Assembly: GCA_043816185.1 (NCBI GenBank)
Contig: JBDRIG010000041.1
Coordinates: forward strand, 1-11,027
From: Elusimicrobiota bacterium
GTDB lineage: Bacteria; Elusimicrobiota; UBA8919
Direction of reading: 5' to 3'
Length of the DNA: 11,027 bases
Shown: positions 1-11,027 of the stretch, in pieces
How the letters are laid out: the number at the start of each line of letters is the position of its first letter
Numbering within the stretch: position 1 is the stretch's first letter
Program-made: the position numbers and the translations under genes
The notes under the pieces: generated by a model
What the model was told of the DNA's origin: nothing
The model's input: the letters and a program-made list of their open reading frames with translations, nothing else
Databases searched by the model: none

Positions 1-18
1 CTTTATTATTGGTGTCAT
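1..18 (-). CDS. Possible 5' end of a downstream gene (MTPIIK...), truncated by the window edge
   Basis: ATG at 18-16 is open to the window edge; GGAG at 44-41 upstream; same orientation as the operon. Only 6 codons are visible. Confidence 0.35.
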
Positions 19-160
19 TTACAAATTTATATTCGTTTATCTCCACCCGTTTAGCGGGAAGGAAGCGTGTCAAAAGATGCTGATTTTTGACAAAGGGGAT
101 GCTATTTTCTACTTGACATGCTTTTCCATAGATGATGACAAGTTGTGTCATTGTGGCAAA

Positions 161-847
161 TTATATTTGTTTCACTTTGTCAATATCGGTATATCTCCCA
201 ATAAGAACAAGTATATCTCCGTCTTGTAAAATCTCTGAAGCAGGTGGAGCAATAAACAATTCCTCTTTGAAATCAGTTTCACCGTTATCTTTAATATATG
301 GTATTTTTCTTTTAATACCTATAATATGTAGATTATATTTTGCTCTTACGTCAACATCCTTAATCGTCTTATCTATAAATAATTGAGGAACAATAACCTC
401 TGCCATATTATATTCTGGCGAAAGTTCTATTTTTTCTATTATGTTCGGAGATAATAACATTTCTGCAAGTTTTATCCCCATATCTCTTTCAGGAAAAACA
501 ATTTTATCAACACCTATTTTCTGAAGAACCTTCGCATGTATATCATCTAAACCTTTAACAACAATGTTTTTAACACCAACTTCTTTTAATATCAAACTAG
601 TAAGAATACTCGCTTCCCTGTTATCGCCGATAGCAATAATAGCAGTATTAAAATCACTAAGACCAAGTTCTCTTATCGATTTTTCATCTGTTGAATCTGC
701 TACTACTGCCTGAGTAATGAATGAAGAAATTTCCTGTATTTTTCGTTCATTCGTGTCTATAGCAAGAACCTGAATGCCTCTTTTTGACAATTCTTTCGCA
801 ACAGCAATTCCAAATGTTCCAAGTCCAATAACCGCAATTTGTTCCAT
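161..847 (-). CDS. ktrA: Ktr/Trk potassium uptake system RCK (NAD-binding) regulatory subunit, KtrA/TrkA family
   Basis: MEQIAVIGLGTFG Rossmann motif, AIIAIGD, KIGVDKIVFPERDMG, C-terminal RCK_C domain. ATG at 847 matches the family N-terminus; the longer ORF (TTG 901) runs into repeat DNA. Confidence 0.92.
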   Translation of the reverse strand: MEQIAVIGLGTFGIAVAKELSKRGIQVLAIDTNERKIQEISSFITQAVVADSTDEKSIRELGLSDFNTAIIAIGDNREASILTSLILKEVGVKNIVVKGLDDIHAKVLQKIGVDKIVFPERDMGIKLAEMLLSPNIIEKIELSPEYNMAEVIVPQLFIDKTIKDVDVRAKYNLHIIGIKRKIPYIKDNGETDFKEELFIAPPASEILQDGDILVLIGRYTDIDKVKQI

Positions 848-868
848 AATAACAGCAGCAGATAGTAA

Positions 869-1046
869 CACTACTTCGTTAGGTGGCTCATTTACCGACA
901 ACCTATTTTATGTTCATGGTCATTGCGAAGTGAGGTCGCCACAGGCGACCGTGGCAATCCCAGCGTTAAAGACGAGATTGCTTCGCTATCGCTCGCAATG
1001 ACAACAAGGTCGCTCGCAATGACGGACTGAACTTAACGAAATAGTA
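869..1046. mobile_element. MITE-like element with imperfect terminal inverted repeats and a possible 4-bp target duplication
   Basis: ACTACTTCGTTAGGT (870-884) matches the reverse complement of 1031-1045 (ACTATTTCGTTAAGT) at 13/15; GTAA flanks both sides (865-868, 1047-1050); no transposase. Confidence 0.55.
919..1023. repeat. GTCATTGCGA...TCGCAATGAC palindromic (REP/RPE-like) element, copy 1
   Basis: Perfect IR 919-928/993-1002; inner hairpin GGTCGCC-ACA-GGCGACC (934-950); GCAATC/GATTGC stem (954-959/976-981); right end TCGCTCGCAATGAC duplicated (989-1002, 1010-1023). Confidence 0.85.
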
Positions 1047-1138
1047 GTAAGTAATTAGTAATAGCGATTGACTCAAATTAATAAATTTTCGAACCAACAT
1101 TCGCCACTACAAACCATCTATTCGCTATCTTTTCTCTG

Positions 1139-1145
1139 CCTCCTT
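1139..1145 (-). promoter_or_regulatory. Strong Shine-Dalgarno AAGGAGG overlapping the ktrB stop, with no canonical start codon at normal spacing
   Basis: Minus strand reads TAAGGAGGCAGAGAAAAGATAGCG; the ktrA ATG is 291 nt downstream. Confidence 0.6.
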
Positions 1146-2475
1146 ATCCGACTACAACTTTATCTTCAATGTAACGAAATTTTTCTACACCACTTTCATC
1201 TATAACAACAGTTGCAATTGTTAAAGGTCCAAGCCTTCCAACAAACATCGTCAATATTATAAGCAACTTACCAAAAGGCGTAAAAAAAGATGAAAATGAA
1301 AGTAATGTCCCAGTAGCACTAGATAAACCACAGGTTGCAAATGCTGAAACAACTTCAAAAAGTGTTTTCATGAAGTCCTTACCTTCAATAACTAAAATCA
1401 AAAATGTCATTACCAATACAAAAACAAAAGCAAAAAAAGTGAGTATAAATGATTTTTGAACAATTTCAGCAGAAATCCTTCGCTTAAAAATGGAAACATC
1501 TTTTCTGCCTTTTAGTGTTGTTTTTATACTCATAAGAACTGTAGCAAACGTCGTTGTTTTTATTCCACCTCCGGTTCCCGATGGAGAAGCACCTATAAAC
1601 ATCAGCCCTATAATTAAAAATAAAATTGGAGCAGTAAGTGCTGAAATATCAATAGTATTAAAACCTGCTGTGCGAGGAGAAACGGATTGAAAATAGGCGG
1701 ACAATAATTTATCTTTAAACGAAAGAAGCCCAATTGTATTCGGATTATTATTTTCCAACAGAAATATCAGGACAGTGCCTATAACAATAAAAATTATCGT
1801 CGTCCAAAACACAACTTTTGTGTGTAAAAGAAATCGCTTCGTTTTTTTGTAAGAATGAACGTCGCTGATAACAATATAACCAATGCCTCCCAAAATTATA
1901 AGCGTTGTTATTCCAAGATTTATTACTACGGAACCGACATAATTTGTGAGATTCGGTCCGAAGGTTGAAAAACCGGCGTTGCAAAAAGCGGAAACCGAAT
2001 GAAAAATTGAATGCCCAAAGCCACTGACAATTCCGAATTCTGGAATCCACTTTATTGAAAGAATTACCGCCCCTATAAATTCAATAAGTAACGTAATTTT
2101 TGCAACATAAACTATAAACTTTTTAATTTCATTAAATGAAAATATCTGTATGCCTTCAGCAAACGTAAGTCGATCCTTCAAAGACACTTGTTTACCTATC
2201 ATAACCACAAATAATGTGGCAAGTGTCATATAGCCCAAACCACCAATTTGAATAAGAAGTAGTATGATTATTTTGCCAAATAATGACCATTGCGTCGCTG
2301 TATTTACGACAATAAGTCCTGTAACACAAACAGCAGATGTCGCTGTAAAAAATGCATCAACAAAACTTACACATTGTGATTGAGCAGAACAAACAGGTAA
2401 TGACAAAATAATGCTTCCAATTAAAATTACACCTGCAAAACCGAATATAAGAATCTGCTGTGAGGATAATTTCAT
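1144..2475 (-). CDS. ktrB: Ktr/Trk potassium uptake membrane subunit, KtrB/TrkH family
   Basis: 443 aa hydrophobic protein with four pore-loop motifs: TATSAVCVTGL, SAFCNAGF, RTAGF, SAFATCGLS; also GASPSGTGGGIK and MFVGRLGPLT. Confidence 0.93.
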   Translation of the reverse strand: MKLSSQQILIFGFAGVILIGSIILSLPVCSAQSQCVSFVDAFFTATSAVCVTGLIVVNTATQWSLFGKIIILLLIQIGGLGYMTLATLFVVMIGKQVSLKDRLTFAEGIQIFSFNEIKKFIVYVAKITLLIEFIGAVILSIKWIPEFGIVSGFGHSIFHSVSAFCNAGFSTFGPNLTNYVGSVVINLGITTLIILGGIGYIVISDVHSYKKTKRFLLHTKVVFWTTIIFIVIGTVLIFLLENNNPNTIGLLSFKDKLLSAYFQSVSPRTAGFNTIDISALTAPILFLIIGLMFIGASPSGTGGGIKTTTFATVLMSIKTTLKGRKDVSIFKRRISAEIVQKSFILTFFAFVFVLVMTFLILVIEGKDFMKTLFEVVSAFATCGLSSATGTLLSFSSFFTPFGKLLIILTMFVGRLGPLTIATVVIDESGVEKFRYIEDKVVVG

Positions 2476-2477
2476 AA

Positions 2478-2948
2478 TTAATTTGCAGCCTGTGTTTCTG
2501 AAGAGGTTACTGTCGATGATTGCACTGGCAGGTCTGCTTCGTGTTTATCCGCTGTGGCAGAAACATGGCAGGTAGACTCGTCTGGTGATTGTCTGGTAGG
2601 CATTTTTGATTTTGCAATTTCCGCTAACTGCGCGAAATCTTTTGGATGTGAAATGGCAATATCGGCAAGCATTTTTCTATTAAGCGTTATACCAGCTTTT
2701 TTAATTCCTGAAATAAATCTACTATACGACAAACCATTAAGACGAGCAGCCGCATTAAGCGTTAAAATCCACTGGCTTTTTTTATCACGCTTTCTTTGAA
2801 TTCTGCCGACATATGAATGAACCAGTGCCTTGTCCACTCTTTCCGATGCATGTATGTAAACATTTTTGTTGGACAAACGAAATCCCTTTGACTTCTTAAA
2901 AAGTCGTTTTTTCCTTCTTCTTGTTACAACTCCACCTTTAATACGCAT
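2478..2948 (-). CDS. rplT: 50S ribosomal protein L20 with ~40-aa C-terminal extension
   Basis: MRIKGGVVTRRRKKR, SKGF, RKRD..WI..LNAAAR..GLSYSRFI.G.KKAGI.LNRKMLADIA; follows rpmI. Confidence 0.96.
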   Translation of the reverse strand: MRIKGGVVTRRRKKRLFKKSKGFRLSNKNVYIHASERVDKALVHSYVGRIQRKRDKKSQWILTLNAAARLNGLSYSRFISGIKKAGITLNRKMLADIAISHPKDFAQLAEIAKSKMPTRQSPDESTCHVSATADKHEADLPVQSSTVTSSETQAAN

Positions 2949-2959
2949 GTTATTAAAAT

Positions 2960-3014
2960 CAATTATAAACTGAGAATTTAACGCAAAAAATTCTTAATTC
3001 TCAATTTGTAATTG
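2960..3014. repeat. 19-bp imperfect inverted repeat with 7-nt periodicity, between the SD and start of rplT
   Basis: CAATTATAAACTGAGAATT (2960-2978) and AATTCTCAATTTGTAATTG (2996-3014); SD AGGAGG at 3020-3015 abuts it. Confidence 0.85.
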
Positions 3015-3020
3015 CCTCCT

Positions 3021-3218
3021 TTACAGATACGGTAAAATAGTTTTTATCATCTTTGTGTCAACTTTATTTAACGTTGCTGCTTTTTTCAAATGTCGCATTC
3101 TGTTTGGTGACTTCCCTGTAAGAATATGTCGTGCACCTTGTTTTTTTCTCTTAATTTTACCCGTTGCCGTTAGAAAAAATCTCTTTTTGGCGCCACTGTG
3201 TGATTTCAATTTTGGCAT
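3021..3218 (-). CDS. rpmI: 50S ribosomal protein L35
   Basis: MPKLKSHSGAKKRF..TATGKIKR...ARHILTGK...LPY; SD GAAAGGAG upstream. Confidence 0.97.
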   Translation of the reverse strand: MPKLKSHSGAKKRFFLTATGKIKRKKQGARHILTGKSPNRMRHLKKAATLNKVDTKMIKTILPYL

Positions 3219-3245
3219 AGTATCTCCTTTCTAATACAAAATGAG

Positions 3246-3264
3246 AAAAAAATTCCGAAGAATC
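3246..3264 (-). terminator. Possible weak intrinsic terminator/attenuator upstream of rpmI
   Basis: Minus strand GATTC-TTCG-GAATT (cUUCGg tetraloop) running into a T tract; the stem is short. Confidence 0.35.
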
Positions 3265-3472
3265 AAAAATTTCTGAATGGCCTTCCCGATTTATCAGAAC
3301 AACTTATTTTTTTTCAGCCGCCAAAATTCGACAGGATTTAACGACGAAATCTGGCGACGAAACATAGCAAGAAACAAATTGCTAAAAACTCACTTAATGG
3401 AGCGAGTTCTGACAACTATTTCCCCGCTCGTAAAATCTCATCTTCAGCGGAAAAAAATTTGTTTCCAAACAA
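3251..3472 (-). other. Multi-hairpin intergenic region, candidate cis-regulatory RNA
   Basis: Six consecutive stems (3420-3454, 3387-3408, 3365-3384, 3317-3358, 3271-3299, 3251-3264); several mismatches become G-U pairs on the minus (mRNA) strand. Confidence 0.5.
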
Positions 3473-3976
3473 CTATTTTTTCGGTGAAAGAATTGCACTT
3501 ATTGAGTTTCCAACCAAGCGTGGAGACGAATCGGGCTGCCCGTATTCACTTACAGCCACAAGAAGACGATTGATTATATCTCCACCCACCGATATATGCT
3601 CCCTCTCTCTCCCGAAAAACTGCATCAGTACTTTTACCTTGTTTTTTTCTTCGAGAAACCGTTTGACATGTTTGATCTTTACTTCTAAATCATGCTCACC
3701 GATTTTTGGTCTTATCTTTATTTCTTTCAAAACACCAGTTTTATGAACTGTTTTGTTTTTTTTACTTTGAAGATACTTGTATTTTTTGTAATCAATAATT
3801 TTACACACTGGCGGGTTTGCCATTGGTGCTATTTCAACAAGATCAACACCAAATTCCCTTGCTAAAGATATTGCTTCCATTATAGATTTTTCTCCAAGTT
3901 GCGTTCCGTCCTCACCTACCAAACGAACCCTTGGTGCTCTTATTTGATTATTAATTTTTAAAAAACTTTTTGAAAT
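3473..3976 (-). CDS. infC: Translation initiation factor IF-3, non-canonical ATT start (167 aa)
   Basis: SD GGAGGTGA (3990-3983), 6 nt, then ATT at 3976 in frame with the ORF track; adds SKSFLKINNQIRAPRVRL; motifs DLVEIAPMANPPVCKIIDY and KEIKIRPKIGEHD. Confidence 0.95.
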   Translation of the reverse strand: MSKSFLKINNQIRAPRVRLVGEDGTQLGEKSIMEAISLAREFGVDLVEIAPMANPPVCKIIDYKKYKYLQSKKNKTVHKTGVLKEIKIRPKIGEHDLEVKIKHVKRFLEEKNKVKVLMQFFGREREHISVGGDIINRLLVAVSEYGQPDSSPRLVGNSISAILSPKK

Positions 3977-4121
3977 TTTATATCACCTCCATAACTCAAG
4001 CAACTTTGCTGCAAAAATTGCAAACGAAAAACAATTGATAGAAAATTATTTATTACTCATTCTTCTATGTTTTGCTTTTCTACTTTATTACAACCTGCGA
4101 TACTTCTTCTTCACTTCTCTC

Positions 4122-4802
4122 TCACGACAAATTTGTCTCTAAGTTTATTTTCAATTTTATTAGCGCATCCTTTGCCGCACTCTGTTGTGCTTCTTTTTTT
4201 GATTTACCAAGTCCTGCACCAATTTGCTTTTTTTTAACACTTACCACAACCTTAAATATTTTGTTATGGGCAGGCCCTGTTTCTTCTTTGACGATGTAGG
4301 TAGGTGTCATCTTATGTTTTGACTGTATTATTTTTTGTAATTCCGATTTGAAATCCAATAAAACAATTTCTTGTTTGTCTAATAATTCCCAAACAAACTT
4401 TTCTGTTATTTTATATCCACTATCTAAAAATATCGCACCTATAATTGCTTCTACCGTATTTGCAAGTATTGACTCTTTGCACCTACCACCAGTTGACTCT
4501 TCAGATATGGACATTTTTATAAATTTTCCGAGTTCAAGTTTTTTTGCAATTTCTTGTAAAGCTACACCGCTTACTACAGATGATTTTATTTTAGAAAGAT
4601 TACCCTCGTCATAACTTGGATATTTGGAGTAAAAATAAATGGCCGCCATTGTGGATAAAACAGCATCGCCTAAAAACTCCATCCGCTCATTAAATTCCTT
4701 TAAATCATTTTCTATTGCAAACGATTTGTGCGTTATTGCAATATCTAAAAATTTTGGATCTTTGAATTTTACTTTTATTTTTTTTTGTAATTCATCAAGC
4801 AT
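4122..4802 (-). CDS. rnc: Ribonuclease III
   Basis: AITHKSF, NERMEFLGDAVL signature, EAIIGAIFLDSG, C-terminal dsRBD (DFKSELQ, GPAH, GKSKKEAQQSAA); start overlaps the fabF stop by 8 nt. Confidence 0.96.
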   Translation of the reverse strand: MLDELQKKIKVKFKDPKFLDIAITHKSFAIENDLKEFNERMEFLGDAVLSTMAAIYFYSKYPSYDEGNLSKIKSSVVSGVALQEIAKKLELGKFIKMSISEESTGGRCKESILANTVEAIIGAIFLDSGYKITEKFVWELLDKQEIVLLDFKSELQKIIQSKHKMTPTYIVKEETGPAHNKIFKVVVSVKKKQIGAGLGKSKKEAQQSAAKDALIKLKINLETNLS

Positions 4803-6033
4803 ATTTTTTTACCACCAATGTCGCATTGTGTCCACCAAAACCGAGCGAATTAGAAATTGCAGCATTTATTTGTTTTTGCCGTGGTTTGTTAGGCACATAA
4901 TCAAGATCGCATTCAGGATCAGGAAACTCATAATTTATCGTTGGATGAATAAAACCTCTTTCTATGCACAAAGCTGTCGCAATAAGTTCTACTGCCCCAG
5001 CAGCACCCAAAAGGTGACCAGTCATTGATTTTGTCGATGATATTGCAAGTTTTTTTGCATGTTCGCCAAAAATATTTTTTATTGCTATGGTTTCAACTTT
5101 ATCGTTCAAGTTTGTTGAGGTTCCGTGCGCATTTACATAATCGATGTCTTCTGGTTTAAGTCCCGCATCTTTTATTGCTAATTCTATACATTTTGATGAC
5201 GCAATGGCGTTTGGTTCAGGTGCTGTAATATGATATGCATCGTCGGTAGCACCATAGCCAGCAAGTTCACAATATATTTTCGCACCGCGCGCAAGTGCAT
5301 GTTCTTCTGTCTCAAGAATCATTATTCCCGCACCTTCACCCATAACAAAACCATCTCTTTGGGCATCAAAAGGACGCGATGCTTTTTCAGGAGAGTCATT
5401 TCTCGTCGAAAGTGCTTTAATCGAACAAAAACCACCAAAACCCAATTGCGTTATTGCCGCTTCACTTCCACCTGCAATTGCGACATCCATATCACCACAT
5501 CTCATTAAACGTAGTGCGTTACCTACTGAATGCGTAGACGATGCACATGCAGAAGTAATGGAATAATTTGGCCCACGAACACCAAGCATTATCGCAATTT
5601 CTCCAGGTGCCATATTTGTAATAAGCATTGGTATAAAAAATGGTGAAATTCTGTCAGCACCCTTTTCAAAAAGAATTTTTGATTGCTCTTCTATCGTCTT
5701 AATTCCACCTATGCCGCTTCCAACAATTACTCCACATCTCTCAGGATTTTCTTTCGCAAAATCAATCTTTGAATCCTCCGCCGCTAATTTCGCTGCTGCA
5801 ACTGCAAACTGAACAAATCTGTCCATTCTTCTAATCTTTTTTTTATCAATATAGTTTTCTGGGTTGAAATCCTTTACTTCACAACCAAATTTGGCTGAAA
5901 AATTAGTGGTGTCAAATTTTGTAATCGGCCCTGCTGACGATTTTCCGTCCATCAATGCCTTCCAATATTCATCTTTGCCAATACCGATAGGTGATACCAC
6001 CCCTACTCCAGTAATTACGACCTTTTTATACAT
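4795..6033 (-). CDS. fabF: 3-oxoacyl-ACP synthase II
   Basis: KKVVITGVG, SACAS, NAHGTST, KSMTGHLLGAAG, NSLGFGGHN. ATG 6033 fits the family N-terminus; alternative ATG at 6054. Confidence 0.95.
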   Translation of the reverse strand: MYKKVVITGVGVVSPIGIGKDEYWKALMDGKSSAGPITKFDTTNFSAKFGCEVKDFNPENYIDKKKIRRMDRFVQFAVAAAKLAAEDSKIDFAKENPERCGVIVGSGIGGIKTIEEQSKILFEKGADRISPFFIPMLITNMAPGEIAIMLGVRGPNYSITSACASSTHSVGNALRLMRCGDMDVAIAGGSEAAITQLGFGGFCSIKALSTRNDSPEKASRPFDAQRDGFVMGEGAGIMILETEEHALARGAKIYCELAGYGATDDAYHITAPEPNAIASSKCIELAIKDAGLKPEDIDYVNAHGTSTNLNDKVETIAIKNIFGEHAKKLAISSTKSMTGHLLGAAGAVELIATALCIERGFIHPTINYEFPDPECDLDYVPNKPRQKQINAAISNSLGFGGHNATLVVKKYA

Positions 6034-6056
6034 AATTGTTTCCAGAAAAAACATGG

Positions 6057-6133
6057 ATCAAAAAAACAAAAATAAGCGATAAGTGACTTGAATTAAATAA
6101 AGACAAAAAAACCTAATTCTTAATTCTTGATTT
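6057..6133. repeat. Heptamer-periodic imperfect hairpin between acpP and fabF
   Basis: Minus strand AAATCAA GAATTAA GAATTAG; ATCAAGAA pairs with TTTTTGAT and TAAGAAT with ATTTTTG using G-U pairs. Confidence 0.55.
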
Positions 6134-6138
6134 CTTCT

Positions 6139-6381
6139 CTATCCTGCTTTTGCATGTGCGTTAATATAATCAATTGCTTGACCAACAGTTGCAATTTTCG
6201 ATGCTTCTTCATCTGGAATTTCAAGTCCAAATGCTTCTTCAAATGCCATAACAAGTTCAACTGTATCTAAAGAATCGGCACCTAAATCATTTACAAATGA
6301 TGCTGCCGGTACAACCTTTGCTGCATCCACACTCAACTGCTCGGTCACAATTTGTTTTACCTTCTCTGATACATCTGCCAT
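6139..6381 (-). CDS. acpP: Acyl carrier protein
   Basis: [21 protein letters not shown] phosphopantetheine site; SD AAGGGGG upstream. Confidence 0.97.
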
Positions 6382-6390
6382 AATACCCCC

Positions 6391-6445
6391 TTAAAATCAA
6401 TTACAAATTAGGAATTAAGAATCGGATTTTTACATTAAATTCTCG
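6391..6445. repeat. Second copy of the rpmI-rplT heptamer element, between fabG and acpP
   Basis: Plus strand CAATTAC AAATTAG GAATTAA GAAT...TTAAATTCTC aligns with the minus strand of 3014-2972 (CAATTAC AAATTGA GAATTAA GAAT...TTAAATTCTC). Confidence 0.8.
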
Positions 6446-6455
6446 ATCGCCTTTC

Positions 6456-7208
6456 TCACATGTACATTCCACCGTTGACGGAAACTATCTCTCCAGTAAT
6501 ATACGATGATTCATCGGTACATAAAAACACAACTACATTTGCAACATCCTGAGGATCTCCTAATCGTGCTAACGGAATTAAATTTGTAAGTTTTTCTTTA
6601 GCATCCTGTGGAAGTTTTTCGGTCATGGCCGTTTTTATAAATCCTGGTGCAACAGCATTTACATTTATGTTTCTCGATGCTAATTCTCTGGCCAAAGTTT
6701 TCGTCAGTGCAATCACCCCACCTTTCGATGCAGAATAATTCACCTGTCCTGCATTTCCCATCAAACCTACAACTGATGCAATGTTGACAATTTTTCCAGA
6801 ACGCTGTTTCATCATTACTTTTGCCACTGCTTTTGAACAATTAAAAACACCCTTCAAGTTGATTGCAATAACCTTATCCCAGTCGTCATCGGACATTCTT
6901 ATTAAAAGATTGTCCCGTGTAATCCCAGCGTTGTTGATCATTATATCAATTTTTCCAAATTTTTCAATAGTTTTCTTAATCATCTCTTCCGTTTCTTGTG
7001 AGGAAGAAACATCAACTTTTAATGCAATCGTTTCAACATTTTTATCTTTTAATATCTCCTCCGCAGTTTTTTTTGCAGATTCCTCCATAATATCAACAAC
7101 CACTATTTTTGCACCCTCATCAGCAAGTTTTTCGGCAATTGCCCTGCCAATTCCCTGTGCCCCACCTGTAACTATTGCCACACTATCTCTTAATTTTTGT
7201 TTACACAT
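6456..7208 (-). CDS. fabG: 3-oxoacyl-ACP reductase
   Basis: SDR motifs TGGAQGIG, NNAGITRD, YSASK, NAVAPGFI; fab cluster context. Confidence 0.96.
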   Translation of the reverse strand: MCKQKLRDSVAIVTGGAQGIGRAIAEKLADEGAKIVVVDIMEESAKKTAEEILKDKNVETIALKVDVSSSQETEEMIKKTIEKFGKIDIMINNAGITRDNLLIRMSDDDWDKVIAINLKGVFNCSKAVAKVMMKQRSGKIVNIASVVGLMGNAGQVNYSASKGGVIALTKTLARELASRNINVNAVAPGFIKTAMTEKLPQDAKEKLTNLIPLARLGDPQDVANVVVFLCTDESSYITGEIVSVNGGMYM

Positions 7209-8166
7209 TTTTTAATATCTCCAATGTTTGATTTAGCGTTGCTTCATTTTCTATATTGAATGTTTTTGTAGTTGATGAAATTTTCTTAATCATTCCAGAT
7301 ATGATATTTTTTGGTCCGATTTCTACAAATGTTTCACAATTATTTGATATTATTTTGTTTATTGAATCAACCCACAGAACAGGCGATGTAATCTGTTTTA
7401 CAAGTTTCTCTGATATTGTGAAAGCATTGGTTGTAATTTCGGCATCGCAGTTTGTGATTATTGGAAATTTCGGATCTTTGAACACTCCTGCGTAGTTTTT
7501 TATTTTCTCTCTCATTTTTTCCCGTGCTTCTTCCATTAAAGATGAATGAAATGCACCTGAAACAACAAGCGGAATTGCCTTTATTTTTTTTGATTTTGCA
7601 ATTTCTTTCGCTTTGTCTATCGCGGTAATTTCACCTGAAATCACGATTTGTCCTGGCGTATTAAAATTCACTGCTTGACAAATTCCAACGCTACTTGCTT
7701 CGGCACAAATTTCCTCAACAATGCTTTTTAATGTGGCGTCGGCACCCAAAATTGCCAACATTACGCCTCTTGTTTTTTTGGATGCCTCATCCATAAATTG
7801 TGCTCGCGAATTTATTAATTTTAATCCATCTTCAAATGAAAGAACCTCAGATGCAACAATCGCCGAATATTCGCCAAGTGAATGACCAGCAGTGAAAGAT
7901 AGTTGATAAGACGATAGGTTGACAAAATGATGAGCGAAAACCCTAAAACAAACAATAGAAGTTACAAAAACAGCTGGTTGAGTATACTTTGTTTGTGTTA
8001 ATAATTCCAACGGTCCTTCAAAAATAATTTTTTTAATATCATAGTTAAGTATTTCGTTTGCAGTATCAAAAGTTTCTTTTGCAATAGAATATTTATCATA
8101 AAATTCTTTTCCCATTCCAATATACTGCGATGCTTGCCCAGGAAAAACAATCGCGATTTTATTCAT
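7201..8166 (-). CDS. fabD: Malonyl-CoA:ACP transacylase
   Basis: FPGQASQYIGMG, TQPA, GHSLGEY, SGAFHS, EIGP. Confidence 0.96.
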   Translation of the reverse strand: MNKIAIVFPGQASQYIGMGKEFYDKYSIAKETFDTANEILNYDIKKIIFEGPLELLTQTKYTQPAVFVTSIVCFRVFAHHFVNLSSYQLSFTAGHSLGEYSAIVASEVLSFEDGLKLINSRAQFMDEASKKTRGVMLAILGADATLKSIVEEICAEASSVGICQAVNFNTPGQIVISGEITAIDKAKEIAKSKKIKAIPLVVSGAFHSSLMEEAREKMREKIKNYAGVFKDPKFPIITNCDAEITTNAFTISEKLVKQITSPVLWVDSINKIISNNCETFVEIGPKNIISGMIKKISSTTKTFNIENEATLNQTLEILKNV

Positions 8167-8181
8167 ATATTTTATTCATAT
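8156..8181. repeat. 13-bp tandem duplication spanning the fabD start codon
   Basis: ATTTTATTCATAT at 8156-8168 and 8169-8181. Confidence 0.9.
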
Positions 8182-8203
8182 AATTACTTCTCTAATTTAC
8201 CGT

Positions 8204-9181
8204 TTATAATTTTATAGCGGTTGCACCCCATGTTAATCCACCGCCGAAAGCAACAAGAACCACAATATCACCTTTTTTTACATTTCCTTTGGAAATCGCC
8301 TCTTCCAACGCAATAGGTGTTGATGCCGCAGATGTATTTCCGTATTTCTGTATGTTCACAAAAACTTTATCTATCGGTATATCCAATTGTTTTGCCACTG
8401 CTTCTATTATTCTAATATTTGCCTGATGAGGAATTAAAAGTTTTACATCATCGCAACTAATTTTTGCAAGTTCAATAGCTTTTTTTGTTGCATCAGCCAT
8501 CGTCCTAACCGCAATCTTGAAGGTTTTATTACCTTCCATTTTCATATAATGAAGCCGCTCTTCAATCGTCTTTTGCGTTGCAGGATTTCTTGAACCACCA
8601 CCGGGCATCATAAGTAAATCGTTATAATTGCCGTTGGCACCCAAATAAGTAGAAAGTATATCACTGGTTGAATTTGTTTTTTTTAATATTACTGCTCCTG
8701 CTCCGTCACCAAGCAGCACACAAACATTTCTATCTGTCCAATCAATTATGCTCGACAGTTTTTCTGCACCTATTACCATAACTGTTTTATACATATTAGA
8801 ATCGATAAAAGATTTTGCAATTGTAATTCCATAAACGAAACCCGAGCAAGCAGCAGAAATATCAAACGCTATCGCCTTGTTAACACCTATTCCTTTTTGA
8901 ACAAAACACGCTGTTGACGGAAAAAACATATCTGGTGTGATTGTAGCGACGATTATTGCATCTAAATCCTGTGCCGAAATTTTTGCTTTTTTTAGTGCTT
9001 TTTTAGCGGCATCTATAGCTAAATCGGATGTGGCATCGGCGTCTCTTGCAATTCGTCTTTCTTTAATTCCCGTCCTTGTTGCTATCCATTCATTCGATGT
9101 TTCAACTATTTTTTCTAACTCACTATTAGTTAAAATTTTTTCAGGAAGACACGAGCCAATACCTATAATTTCAATTCCCAT
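8204..9181 (-). CDS. fabH: 3-oxoacyl-ACP synthase III
   Basis: WIATRTGIKERR, AACSGF, GDGAGA, PHQANIRI, YGNTSAAS, FGGGLTWG. Confidence 0.96.
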   Translation of the reverse strand: MGIEIIGIGSCLPEKILTNSELEKIVETSNEWIATRTGIKERRIARDADATSDLAIDAAKKALKKAKISAQDLDAIIVATITPDMFFPSTACFVQKGIGVNKAIAFDISAACSGFVYGITIAKSFIDSNMYKTVMVIGAEKLSSIIDWTDRNVCVLLGDGAGAVILKKTNSTSDILSTYLGANGNYNDLLMMPGGGSRNPATQKTIEERLHYMKMEGNKTFKIAVRTMADATKKAIELAKISCDDVKLLIPHQANIRIIEAVAKQLDIPIDKVFVNIQKYGNTSAASTPIALEEAISKGNVKKGDIVVLVAFGGGLTWGATAIKL

Positions 9182-9191
9182 TTTTGTTTCC

Positions 9192-10223
9192 TCAATTTAC
9201 TTGTTTGTCGATAGAACAGGTCAAATGATTAATTTTAGCAATTTCTTTTTTTATATCTTCAACTATGTTATTTTTTGCCGATTCAATACACAATTTTATT
9301 CCATTTTTTATTGCCTTTGCGTTTGAAGAACCATGTCCAATAATACACGCACCGTTGATACCCAGAAGCGGCGCACCACCATATTCGTCGTAATCAATTT
9401 TCTTTTTAATGTGCTTAAATACACTTTTTAATATAAATGCTGCTGTCATAACGCGAATGGGACTTTTTTTCATTTCATTTTTAATAAGTTGAACGAAAAA
9501 TTCACTAATACCCTCGCTTAACTTTAAGACAACATTACCAACAAAACCATCACAAACAACTACATCCGCATTCCCTTTTGGTATATCTCGACCCTCTACA
9601 TTTCCAAAAAAATTTAGTCCAGATTCTTTAATAAGTTTATATGTTGCTATTGTTAATTCATTGCCTTTTGATTGCTCTTCGCCTATAGATAAAAGCCCTA
9701 TTTTTGGTTTTTCTACTTTGAAAAGATTTTTGTAGTACACTGAACCCATTACAGCAAATTGTAAAAGATTTTTTGGTTTTGAATCAACATTTGCACCAAT
9801 ATCAATTAAAACACATGGATTTGTTAGCGTCGGAAATATCGTAGCAATTGCTGGTCTTGAAACACCTTCTATTCGTTTTAGTATCATAAGGGCAGCTGCG
9901 TTTATTGCCCCTGAATTTCCCGCTGAAAAAAATCCATCTGCGAGACCGTCAGCAATAAGTTTTATGCTTTTTACAATTGATGAATTTGGTTTTAATCTTA
10001 CCGCATCAACAGGCGAATCACTCATCACTATAACTTCTGGTGCATGAATTATTTTTATTGGTAGATTTTGAATGTTTTTGTATTTTTTCAATTCATTTTT
10101 TATTTGGTATTCATCGCCAACCAATAATATTTCTTCATTGAATTTTCTTGCTATATCTATAGCACCCTCAACAACTGTGAACGGTGCGTTGTCACCACCC
10201 ATTACATCAACAGCTATTTTCAT
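9192..10223 (-). CDS. plsX: Phosphate acyltransferase PlsX
   Basis: MKIAVDVMGGDNAP, SAGNSGA, DIGANVD, GNVEGRD, VCDGFVGN, YGGAPLLG, GHGSS. Confidence 0.97.
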   Translation of the reverse strand: MKIAVDVMGGDNAPFTVVEGAIDIARKFNEEILLVGDEYQIKNELKKYKNIQNLPIKIIHAPEVIVMSDSPVDAVRLKPNSSIVKSIKLIADGLADGFFSAGNSGAINAAALMILKRIEGVSRPAIATIFPTLTNPCVLIDIGANVDSKPKNLLQFAVMGSVYYKNLFKVEKPKIGLLSIGEEQSKGNELTIATYKLIKESGLNFFGNVEGRDIPKGNADVVVCDGFVGNVVLKLSEGISEFFVQLIKNEMKKSPIRVMTAAFILKSVFKHIKKKIDYDEYGGAPLLGINGACIIGHGSSNAKAIKNGIKLCIESAKNNIVEDIKKEIAKINHLTCSIDKQVN

Positions 10224-10293
10224 TTAGATCTTACTCCACTAATTCTTATTTCAATGCTTACCTGCTTTACGCAGGAAAGGTTGGATTTATAAA

Positions 10294-10503
10294 TTATTTG
10301 CTTTTTTGCTCTTCTTTTGATTTCTTCTGTTTGATTTTTACAACCGATACGGTATTGTAAAATCCACACTTCGGACACACATGGTGAGGAAGTTTTGGCG
10401 ATTTACATTGTGAACACAATTCTAAATTTTTTGCCTCAATCTTCCAATTTGCCCTTCTTTTGTTCTGTCGAGACGTCGAATGCCTTCTTTTTGGGTTTGC
10501 CAT
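10294..10503 (-). CDS. rpmF: 50S ribosomal protein L32, zinc-ribbon type
   Basis: MANPKRRHSTSR, CSQC...PHHVCPKCGFY; SD GAAAGGAG; precedes plsX. Confidence 0.96.
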   Translation of the reverse strand: MANPKRRHSTSRQNKRRANWKIEAKNLELCSQCKSPKLPHHVCPKCGFYNTVSVVKIKQKKSKEEQKSK

Positions 10504-10530
10504 AAATTATTTCTCCTTTCAAAATTAAAT

Positions 10531-10611
10531 CTACCAATATTTTGTTCTACGGAACAATTGGCTACCGCTCAACGGCATCTGTTGCTACCAATATGTCATT
10601 CCTAACGAAAT
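10531..10611. repeat. Two direct REP-like units (CTACCAATAT plus short hairpin)
   Basis: CTACCAATAT at 10531-10540 and 10585-10594, followed by TTGTTC-TACG-GAACAA (10542-10557) and ATTCC-TAAC-GAAAT (10598-10611). Confidence 0.7.
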
Positions 10612-10661
10612 TTTTGATTTGTCTGTAATTTTTATTGCCTAGTTCTTAATCCCACTTTTTC

Positions 10662-10689
10662 ATTCTACTTTTTTTGAAATGATTGTCAA
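10662..10689 (-). promoter_or_regulatory. Sigma70-type promoter for the rpmF-plsX-fab operon
   Basis: Minus strand TTGACA (10689-10684), 16 nt, TAGAAT (10667-10662), about 160 nt upstream of rpmF. Confidence 0.7.
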
Positions 10690-10792
10690 CCGTTTGTATA
10701 GGTTTTGTCGCTTAAGAATTAAAAGTGCACACTTTTTAAATGATTTAAAAATTAAATCTGCACACCACAAAGTAAGTTGTTATCATACAAAC

Positions 10793-10896
10793 TGTCGTTG
10801 CGAGAGTCAATTTATCGACTCGTGGCAATCTCTGTGTTGAAGACAAATCGAGATTGCTTCGTTGTCCCGATTGCATCGGGACTTCCCGCAATGGTA
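10793..10896. repeat. GTCATTGCGA-type palindromic element, copy 2
   Basis: TGTCGTTGCGAG...CCCGCAATGGTA ends; shares CGTGGCAATC and CGAGATTGCTTCG with copy 1; inner hairpins GAGTC/GACTC (10804-10821) and GTCCCGAT-TGC-ATCGGGAC (10864-10882). Confidence 0.85.
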
Positions 10897-10900
10897 TAAT
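10871..10900 (+). promoter_or_regulatory. Candidate plus-strand promoter formed at the repeat end
   Basis: TTGCAT (10871-10876), 18 nt, TATAAT (10895-10900) with extended -10 TGn (10892-10894). Confidence 0.4.
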
Positions 10901-10966
10901 GGAAAAGCAAGCTTCCTTCCGGGGAGGTCATAAAGTAACGCATAAAAGCGCAGACCTTTTGTGATC

Positions 10967-11027
10967 TTTTCAAACGATCAAAAGTGGTGTATAATATATA
11001 CACCGGACTTTAACCCCGGTAAGGAGG
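10967..11027 (+). promoter_or_regulatory. Divergent promoter, operator-like palindrome and SD for a gene beyond the window
   Basis: TTTTCA (10967-10972), 17 nt, TATAAT (10990-10995); perfect IR GGTGTATA-ATA-TATACACC (10986-11004); AAGGAGG at 11021-11027. Confidence 0.6.

Follow-up and report, generated by a model that had tools for sequence, protein, structure and literature searches.

We analysed an 11,027-nt stretch of DNA from an Elusimicrobiota bacterium (contig JBDRIG010000041.1 of assembly GCA_043816185.1, positions 1 to 11,027; hereafter the window), in which the K+ transporter genes ktrB and ktrA follow each other on the minus strand, separated by a 296-nt spacer (848–1143). Where a compact ktrA ribosome site would normally be expected, three non-coding palindromic repeats are stacked in this spacer: an outer hairpin, a miniature inverted-repeat transposable element (MITE) inserted into one of its arms, and a palindromic module inside the MITE (Table 1). 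The layers represent three distinct repeat classes, each distributed in its own way. The nesting had been put forward in an earlier description of the window made from its letters alone (the original prediction); we found it to be real, with layers that differ in where else they occur. Based on the layout of this and related loci, we propose, at a probability of about 55%, that the ktrA start is served by a hairpin-bridged "split" ribosome binding site, with the Shine-Dalgarno (SD) motif on one side of the folded repeats and the start codon on the other.

The window is contig C41 of a 1.44-Mb genome in 112 contigs (G000; 94% complete). It was compared with its relatives in a set of 12 genomes of the order, G000 included, whose individual loci carry L-numbers of three digits. 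The KtrB protein is 61–85% identical to that of the relatives, and the MEQIAVIG N-terminus of KtrA is kept in them, with the Rossmann domain beginning at residue 4. A ktrA start at TTG 901, which the original prediction had raised as a point to check, was ruled out: this codon lies within the MITE, in a stretch absent from the relatives, whose upstream frame has stop codons, and the conserved N-terminus opens at ATG 847.

Table 1. Positions of the genes, repeat layers and ribosome-site elements in the window.
Feature	Coordinates	Strand	Remarks
ktrA (TrkA_N + TrkA_C)	161–847	-	Pfam PF02254, E 1.1e-26, match from residue 4
ktrA start codon ATG	845–847	-	opens the conserved MEQIAVIG N-terminus
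Linker, 8 nt, A/U-rich (CUGUUAUU)	848–855	-	between the closing G and the ktrA AUG
Outer hairpin, distal 3′ arm (CUAUCU plus CUG)	856–865	-	closes the 283-nt insert against 1125–1138
MITE, 180 nt (868–1047), with TA on each side (866–867, 1048–1049)	866–1049	.	inserted in the 3′ arm of the outer hairpin
MITE terminal inverted repeat, ktrA-proximal	868–884	.	inverted-repeat and end analysis
Inner palindromic module	919–1023	.	arms GTCATTGCGA 919–928 versus 993–1002, duplicated copy 1014–1023
Small hairpins enclosed by the inner module	934–950 and 954–981		
MITE terminal inverted repeat, ktrB-proximal	1031–1047	.	3 mismatches to consensus; end analysis
Outer hairpin, 5′ arm, apical stem-loop and proximal 3′ arm up to the MITE insertion point	1050–1138	-	pair probabilities
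Apical helix, with loop 1068–1100 (33 nt)	1101–1110/1058–1067	-	part of the outer hairpin
GGAGG, sole SD-type motif available to ktrA	1139–1143	-	adjoins the ktrB stop; 291 nt linear from the AUG
ktrB stop codon TAA	1144–1146	-	read from sequence
ktrB (TrkH-family K+ transporter subunit)	1144–2475	-	Pfam PF02386 TrkH, E 8.7e-57
rplT	2478–2948	-	between rpmI and ktrB
rpmI–rplT spacer	2949–3020	-	stop, AGGAGG (3015–3020), C3014...G2960 hairpin (P 1.0), 11-nt linker, rplT ATG
rpmI	3021–3218	-	upstream of rplT
RNase III gene (rnc)	4122–4802	-	226-aa open reading frame, PF14622, E 2.5e-35

Three nested repeat layers between ktrB and ktrA

On the mRNA strand, the region 835–1155 folded with a minimum free energy (MFE) of -100.2 kcal/mol (z = -4.16), and none of 100 shuffled sequences was as stable. 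The outer-layer pairings named in the original prediction, AGATAG with CTATCT, a 10-bp helix and a short helix at the base, were all found in place. In ensemble folding, the 10-bp apical helix had pair probabilities (P) of 0.69–1.0, with nine of its ten pairs at 0.99 or above, and the predicted structure does pair the two ends of the spacer, the AGATAG/CTATCT helix (1125–1130/860–865) having P = 0.47–0.57. At the base of the hairpin, CAG 1138–1136 can pair with CUG in three registers, 856–858 (P = 0.47), 853–855 (P = 0.23) and 859–861 (P = 0.15), which sum to P = 0.85.

By genome match and BLAST coverage, the outer hairpin is single copy in G000. With the MITE and one TA taken out, the spacer aligned lengthwise with the ktrB–ktrA spacer of a same-genus relative, L036, in which the MITE is absent (125 of 160 positions identical, flanking codons included). 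Since L036 lacks the MITE, we regard it as the empty site and the outer hairpin as older than the split of the two species. The arms of the L036 hairpin are made of 8-nt words, and hairpins of this family also fill the rpmI–rplT spacer of another genome (L132 in G009). The corresponding word arrays of the window have decayed, yet they align to the word-array hairpin of L036, and long stems with arms of tandem 7–9-nt words are clear in the relatives. There, the ktrB–ktrA hairpins are dispersed repeats, one type having 37, 72, 76, 12 and 18 matches in five genomes and a second having 47, 24 and 13 matches in three. Rather than a one-off insertion, the outer layer appears to be a decayed member of a lineage-wide hairpin class, and word-array hairpin elements of this kind fill intercistronic spacers throughout this Elusimicrobiota order.

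In the relatives, arms of this kind also enclose genes. A search with the PF05635 (23S_rRNA_IVP) profile gave no match in G000 and 5, 3, 13 and 7 matches in G001, G005, G006 and G010, respectively, and the flanks of the nine PF05635 genes that we examined consist of complementary purine-rich and pyrimidine-rich word arrays. Since both the homologous L036 hairpin and these PF05635 flanks carry word arrays, we assign the outer layer of the window to the same class, resembling an intervening sequence (IVS), as a putatively decayed member without a gene; its loop has no PF05635 open reading frame (ORF) and holds only the apical loop and the MITE. At L118, L122 and L123 (in G001 and G005), PF05635 genes encoding four-helix bundles lie within word-array hairpins, for example upstream of glmS; inspected by eye, these inserts have a purine-rich, SD-like word before the 5′ arm and 6–10 nt from the 3′ arm to the next ATG. 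At another locus, L098 (G010:C12:24175–24684), a tRNA gene is bracketed by two GGTTAAAGG-type hairpins.

The middle layer had been described as an element at 869–1046 bounded by terminal inverted repeats and flanked by a duplicated GTAA. We found that it is a dispersed repeat, as proposed, with limits that differ from those given, namely 868–1047 plus a TA on either side. Its ends are 17 nt long, or 19 nt with the TA, and the arms 870–884/1031–1045 are 87% complementary. An end consensus was built from 26 left-end and 29 right-end matches, and matches to the end sequence, counted at up to 3 mismatches of 17, numbered 86 in G000 versus 2 in shuffled contigs. Ten paired copies of 78–341 nt occur in G000, and TA stands on both sides of nine of these, the window copy included. 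The duplication is therefore TA rather than GTAA, and the rejoined pre-insertion sequence is nonetheless the one originally claimed. When the whole spacer was used as the query, every secondary match among the 46 found in the genome fell within about 860–1045, and BLAST coverage amounted to 24–50 copies within mRNA positions 99–278 versus 1 outside. Folded by itself, the MITE has an MFE of -68.7 kcal/mol (z = -5.0). Going by its TA duplication, we liken it to the IS630/Tc1-mariner superfamily; a search of the 94%-complete G000 for PF13358 (DDE_3), the one transposase family searched for there in this connection, gave no match. Among the 66 unpaired MITE ends, 18 lie within 250 nt of a contig end (e.g. 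on C5, C16, C50, C68, C91, C105 and C109), which indicates that this repeat family breaks the assembly. A copy of the MITE end is also contained in the rpoA leader of the ribosomal-protein cluster of G000.

The innermost layer was confirmed as predicted, its GTCATTGCGA arms being inverted repeats that are 100% complementary at all three positions. An 11-mer of this module, GTCATTGCGAG, occurs 146 times in G000 at up to one mismatch. Basic MITE copies of 78–100 nt are without the module, and longer ones carry it or other nested palindromic modules. Among the 12 genomes searched, no match outside G000 touches the inverted ends of the MITE; all such matches lie within MITE positions 53–159, which is the inner module, and the module is matched in ten of the 12 genomes, G000 included. 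This distribution indicates that the MITE shell is genome-specific and the inner module order-wide. A literature search for the words of the inner module returned only unrelated primer matches, and an Rfam scan of 700–1300 gave four matches, all far under the gathering score (E of at least 1.6).

Placement of the Shine-Dalgarno motif at ktrA and rplT

In the window, C1138 is both the first base after GGAGG and the first paired base of the hairpin, and its partner, G856, lies 8 nt before the ktrA AUG. No SD-like 4-mer was found in the linker before this AUG or in the other ktrA and rplT linkers that we compared. The ktrB–ktrA locus is present in 11 of the 12 genomes, G007 being without a ktrA match, and in ten of these 11 loci a hairpin stands between a strong SD motif and the ktrA AUG, the exception being L039. 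The spacers measure 53–296 nt, and the linear distance from SD to AUG is 291 nt in the window and 24–131 nt in the relatives. The z-scores of the folds were at or below -3.3 in eight of the ten hairpin-bearing loci; the folds of L036 (z = -1.2) and L040 (z = -1.8) were weak. The hairpins themselves belong to at least six unrelated sequence types, three of them within one genus.

Around these hairpins the same elements recur. In all ten hairpin-bearing ktrA loci the 5′ foot of the stem directly adjoins an SD that is GAGG or stronger, and in all ten the base that follows it is C. In the nine loci that could be scored, this C pairs best with a G located 6–9 nt before the AUG (P = 0.38–1.0), and in five of them the distance is exactly 8 nt; L033 was mis-scored by the script owing to a double SD and reads 8 nt by eye. 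A variant from a metagenome, L063, has a linker of 7 nt, and L040, from a sister family, presents a minimal form of GGAGG, a 5-bp stem, 6 nt and ATG. The more distant relatives L042–L044 have an ordinary compact ktrA ribosome site.

Long intergenic hairpins can act as terminators, and the insert might therefore be a transcription signal, either a terminator or attenuator after ktrB or the seat of a promoter for ktrA. We consider this barely credible. No terminator and, in a scan for sigma-70-type promoters, no promoter-like site was found on the gene strand inside the spacer, which answers the earlier question whether ktrA has a promoter of its own there. Across 700–1300 no terminator-like site was seen, versus 0.4 expected, and no U-run follows the stems. 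The sole promoter-like site on the gene strand in the same sigma-70-type scan lies inside ktrB (1284–1256).

The rpmI–rplT spacer of the window provides a second instance of the layout; it folds at -16.3 kcal/mol (z = -2.6). All 12 genomes of the order have, in succession, the rpmI stop, an SD, C, a hairpin with differing arm words, G, a linker of the type GATKTTATY and the rplT ATG, and in all 12 the SD at the hairpin foot is strong (GAGG or better). The G partner of the C was predicted 8 nt before the AUG at P of at least 0.8 in six genomes and 8–9 nt before it, at lower P, in two. Three of the 12 loci were predicted otherwise, though their linkers measure 7–10 nt by eye, and the linker of the window has 11 nt. 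The L20 protein encoded by rplT is 156 aa long; its Pfam match stops at residue 108, and the length of the C-terminal tail differs between relatives. The ktrB ATG (2473–2475) is only 2 nt past the rplT stop and has no SD-like motif upstream of it; this 2-nt gap indicates that the transporter operon is fused to the rpmI–rplT ribosomal-protein operon.

Further genes of G000 have the SD-hairpin-AUG layout, namely those for L15, L36 and L11 and the gene at C9:3111 (8 nt), as well as those for L5 (7 nt) and L27 (6–7 nt). We listed 37 junctions of the ribosomal-protein cluster, taking the first ATG as the start, which makes some of them approximate. A compact SD is present at seven of these junctions and an SD confined to the 5′ foot of a hairpin at six or seven, and many junctions show neither. 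In this cluster (G000:C104:7300–39800, plus strand), nearly all spacers are 43–136 nt long, each with a hairpin, and they finish in a recurrent motif before the ATG, GGTGTTAAT, GATTTTATT or GATATTAAT; one repeat is common to the leaders of S10 and L22. Canonical SDs are in use in G000, with GGAG/GAGG peaking about 10 nt before the first ATG and present in 266 of 869 long ORFs, and the 16S 3′ end of a relative (L101) is canonical.

A proposed hairpin-bridged ribosome site and the evidence for and against it

The oldest layer appears to be a gene-less, decayed word-array hairpin between ktrB and ktrA, into whose 3′ arm a TA-duplicating MITE, itself carrying the nested GTCATTGCGA module, later landed. 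For the mechanism, the pattern at ktrA suggests the following model. Because every layer is self-complementary, the transcript is expected to close into a single branched hairpin. The base of this hairpin would pair the C after GGAGG with the G 8 nt upstream of the ktrA AUG, and the closed structure would restore a working SD-AUG distance across 291 nt, so that ktrA could be started either by a 30S subunit or by a ribosome fresh from termination on ktrB. Folding of the nested repeats probably reunites the SD and the start codon in this way, and we infer that initiation uses the SD on the far side of the stem and that the ribosome copes with the structure protruding there. The original prediction had claimed that all 291 nt could loop out. 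Folding supports this, and the layout in ten of 11 ktrA loci and at rplT supports it more strongly; two of the five SD bases are predicted paired, which does not, and the function given to the loop here is our reading of the layout. More tentatively, and at somewhat less than even odds, the mobile hairpins of the order may insert precisely between SD and AUG, or bring both halves of the site with them, with the fixed layout (SD, C-G, about 8 nt, AUG) keeping them harmless. We propose that near-neutrality in the folded RNA is what allows such inserts to persist.

Several observations weigh against the split-site model. The closing helix of the window is only moderately probable (about 0.5), and the SD bases G1140 and G1139 are mostly paired, with unpaired probabilities of 0.22 and 0.04. 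At L038, L041 and L034, the MFE structure pairs the SD with the U-rich linker or pyrimidine tract before the AUG, and S13, S4 and S5 depart from the C-G/8-nt rule. In G010, about half of 21 copies from one hairpin family open with (A)AGGCAGG irrespective of the locus, so that the "SD" could in part come with the element and not with the gene. One old insertion followed by turnover of the arms may also account for the layout shared at a given locus, in which case the loci are not independent, and RNase III could cleave stems of this kind, leaving SD and AUG on different fragments. Support from the genome-wide scans was weak. A loose scan for SD, hairpin and ATG showed no contrast with control motifs; a second gave 57 candidates, about 15 of them convincing on visual inspection, and a third 384 candidates, only 12 with an adjacent SD, these loose scans being dominated by spurious long folds and internal ATGs. 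An unanchored genome-wide grid of SD and linker positions was flat, without a peak. When the grid was anchored at stop codons, seven starts fell in the cell with offset 0 and linker 8, a cell picked after the data had been seen, versus about 2.6 in the other cells of its row. SD motifs just past stops and far from any start numbered 34 versus a background of about 24, a modest excess.

The predicted pairing of G1140, G1139 and several bases of the 848–855 linker also fits a coupling or sequestration switch, in which the helix would hide the SD and linker until the ribosome ending ktrB, temperature or a factor opens the stem. S4 shares the MFE pairing of the SD with the pre-AUG pyrimidine tract seen at L038, L041 and L034, and because the SD adjoins the ktrB stop or overlaps it, the stem foot would be covered by a ribosome terminating there. 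Most SD bases of the window are, however, predicted open (0.70–0.85), and at L040 the SD sits 45 nt from the ktrB stop with the mini-hairpin layout still kept. A switch of this kind strikes us as distinctly improbable; it would in any case be a variant of the split-site model, since the hairpin would still be needed to bring the AUG close.

The absence of a recognisable SD at many genes raises the question whether the repeats are simply inert. They would then be tolerated junk without a role in initiation, with ktrA starting without an SD or from the A/U-rich linker alone, and GGAGG would be a relic or the terminal word of an element, as the (A)AGGCAGG openings in G010 would have it. Many ribosomal-protein spacers of G000 have a hairpin without a clear SD on either side and only GGTG 5 nt before the ATG, and 530 of the 869 long ORFs lack an SD-like 4-mer before the first ATG, which is not always the true start. 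Inspected by eye, about seven of the 21 copies of the G010 hairpin family adjoin an ATG without a later SD, and five have their own SD after the hairpin; genome-wide, the layout is weakly enriched. Inert repeats would nevertheless leave unexplained why a strong SD is kept at the stem foot in ten of ten hairpin-bearing ktrA loci and 12 of 12 rplT loci, across 67–86% protein identity and unrelated hairpins, and why the linker is held at 6–9 nt. Essential, highly expressed ribosomal-protein genes also carry the layout. We regard inert junk as unlikely.

A processing role appears quite unlikely as well. The RNase III gene of the window is the sole match to PF14622 in the genome, and the stems are long and nearly perfect. 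They could be cut from the transcript, separating the ktrB and ktrA messages and setting their relative stability; ktrA would then be translated either behind a short leader that has no SD or on fragments that the lower stem keeps together. The hairpin class wraps PF05635 genes in the relatives, and RNase III excises the Coxiella IVS according to PMC4990558. Cutting would, however, leave the sole SD on the upstream fragment, G000 has no PF05635 match, and neither the SD abutting the stem nor the fixed linker of about 8 nt would be explained.

If mobile hairpins do stay harmless through the fixed layout, as in the more tentative reading, ribosomes of this lineage routinely initiate across structured inserts of 50–300 nt, or of about 500 nt with a gene inside, since across the PF05635-bearing inserts the SD-hairpin-AUG layout may span about 500 nt. 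Such initiation would extend to essential ribosomal-protein genes and would hold even with a second transposon nested in the stem. If the split-site model itself is correct, selfish DNA can occupy the stretch between SD and AUG, which is among the most constrained in a bacterial gene, by undoing its own insertion through RNA folding. The loci would then supply inserts of 24 to about 300 nt, from several sequence families, as a natural series for testing how much structure between SD and AUG the 30S subunit tolerates. The layout also matters for annotation, in which start finders pick false upstream starts in the repeats, such as TTG 901, and score genes as SD-less, and in which intercistronic gaps of 50–300 nt are taken for operon breaks. 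At ktrBA, it bears on the production of channel and gating subunit in fixed proportion.

Relation to known systems

Each ingredient of the spacer is already known, be it the MITE, the IVS-like hairpin or the split ribosome binding site. In the open literature that we searched, we did not find a chromosomal, repeat-borne split site that has a fixed layout, serves many genes and tolerates a nested transposon; the search on MITEs between SD and start codon gave nothing relevant, and that on split ribosome binding sites gave only the T4 and thrS cases. For the middle layer, the comparison is with the Correia/NEMIS elements of Neisseria and similar TA-duplicating MITEs. Like these, it has short inverted ends, a TA duplication, a length of about 80–340 nt and many copies, and it is intergenic, co-transcribed and able to fold into a long hairpin. 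Unlike them, it shows no sequence relation to Correia/NEMIS, its copies are modular, with further nested palindromes, and the PF13358 search of G000 found no matching transposase. The palindromic elements of Rickettsia are likewise selfish and likewise tolerated by a small genome at functionally sensitive sites; those are read through as protein, whereas the insert described here is untranslated, being placed between SD and AUG.

As in REP/REPIN systems with their RAYT proteins, the hairpin repeats of this order are short, abundant and intergenic, and Y1-transposase genes are present, with three matches in G000 and 4–6 in each of four relatives. The Y1 genes at L140–L146 (G010 and G005) are RAYT-like, encode 223–248 aa and have inverted repeats of their own. 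In six of the seven examined, the flanks are such GGGGAC...GTCCCC-type repeats rather than word-array arms, which makes Y1 transposases doubtful as the mobiliser of the hairpins. At L146, 8-nt word arrays stand on both sides of a GGGGAC...GTCCCC-type core.

The outer-layer class resembles the IVS of 23S rRNA, with its S23p/PF05635 ORF, as described in PMC4990558: a long stem closes the insert, the host RNA still works, and the same kind of arms enclose PF05635 genes in the relatives. It differs in that it sits in an mRNA spacer and not in rRNA, and in that the window copy is without an ORF and its word arrays have decayed.

The split site itself has its closest parallels in the E. coli thrS leader, in which a split site accommodates a long hairpin (as outlined in PMC3936740), and in phage T4. 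In T4 genes 38 and 25, studied by Nivinskas et al. (1999) and by Malys and Nivinskas (2009) and summarised in PMC3014915, a hairpin brings SD and AUG closer together, from 22 to 5 nt and from 27 to 11 nt, respectively, and mutations that destabilise the hairpin lower initiation. As far as that summary describes them, these sites and ours have in common that SD and AUG are too distant in the linear sequence, that a stem-loop restores (here, by prediction) a working spacing, that no other SD lies near the AUG, and that the arrangement is kept within a clade and absent from more distant relatives. The T4 spacings are of 22–27 nt, and the hairpins are unique and not mobile, whereas the inserts predicted to be bridged here are of 50–300 nt and belong to dispersed repeat families. 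Unlike those of T4, they change in sequence from one close relative to the next, are present at many genes and can hold a nested MITE.

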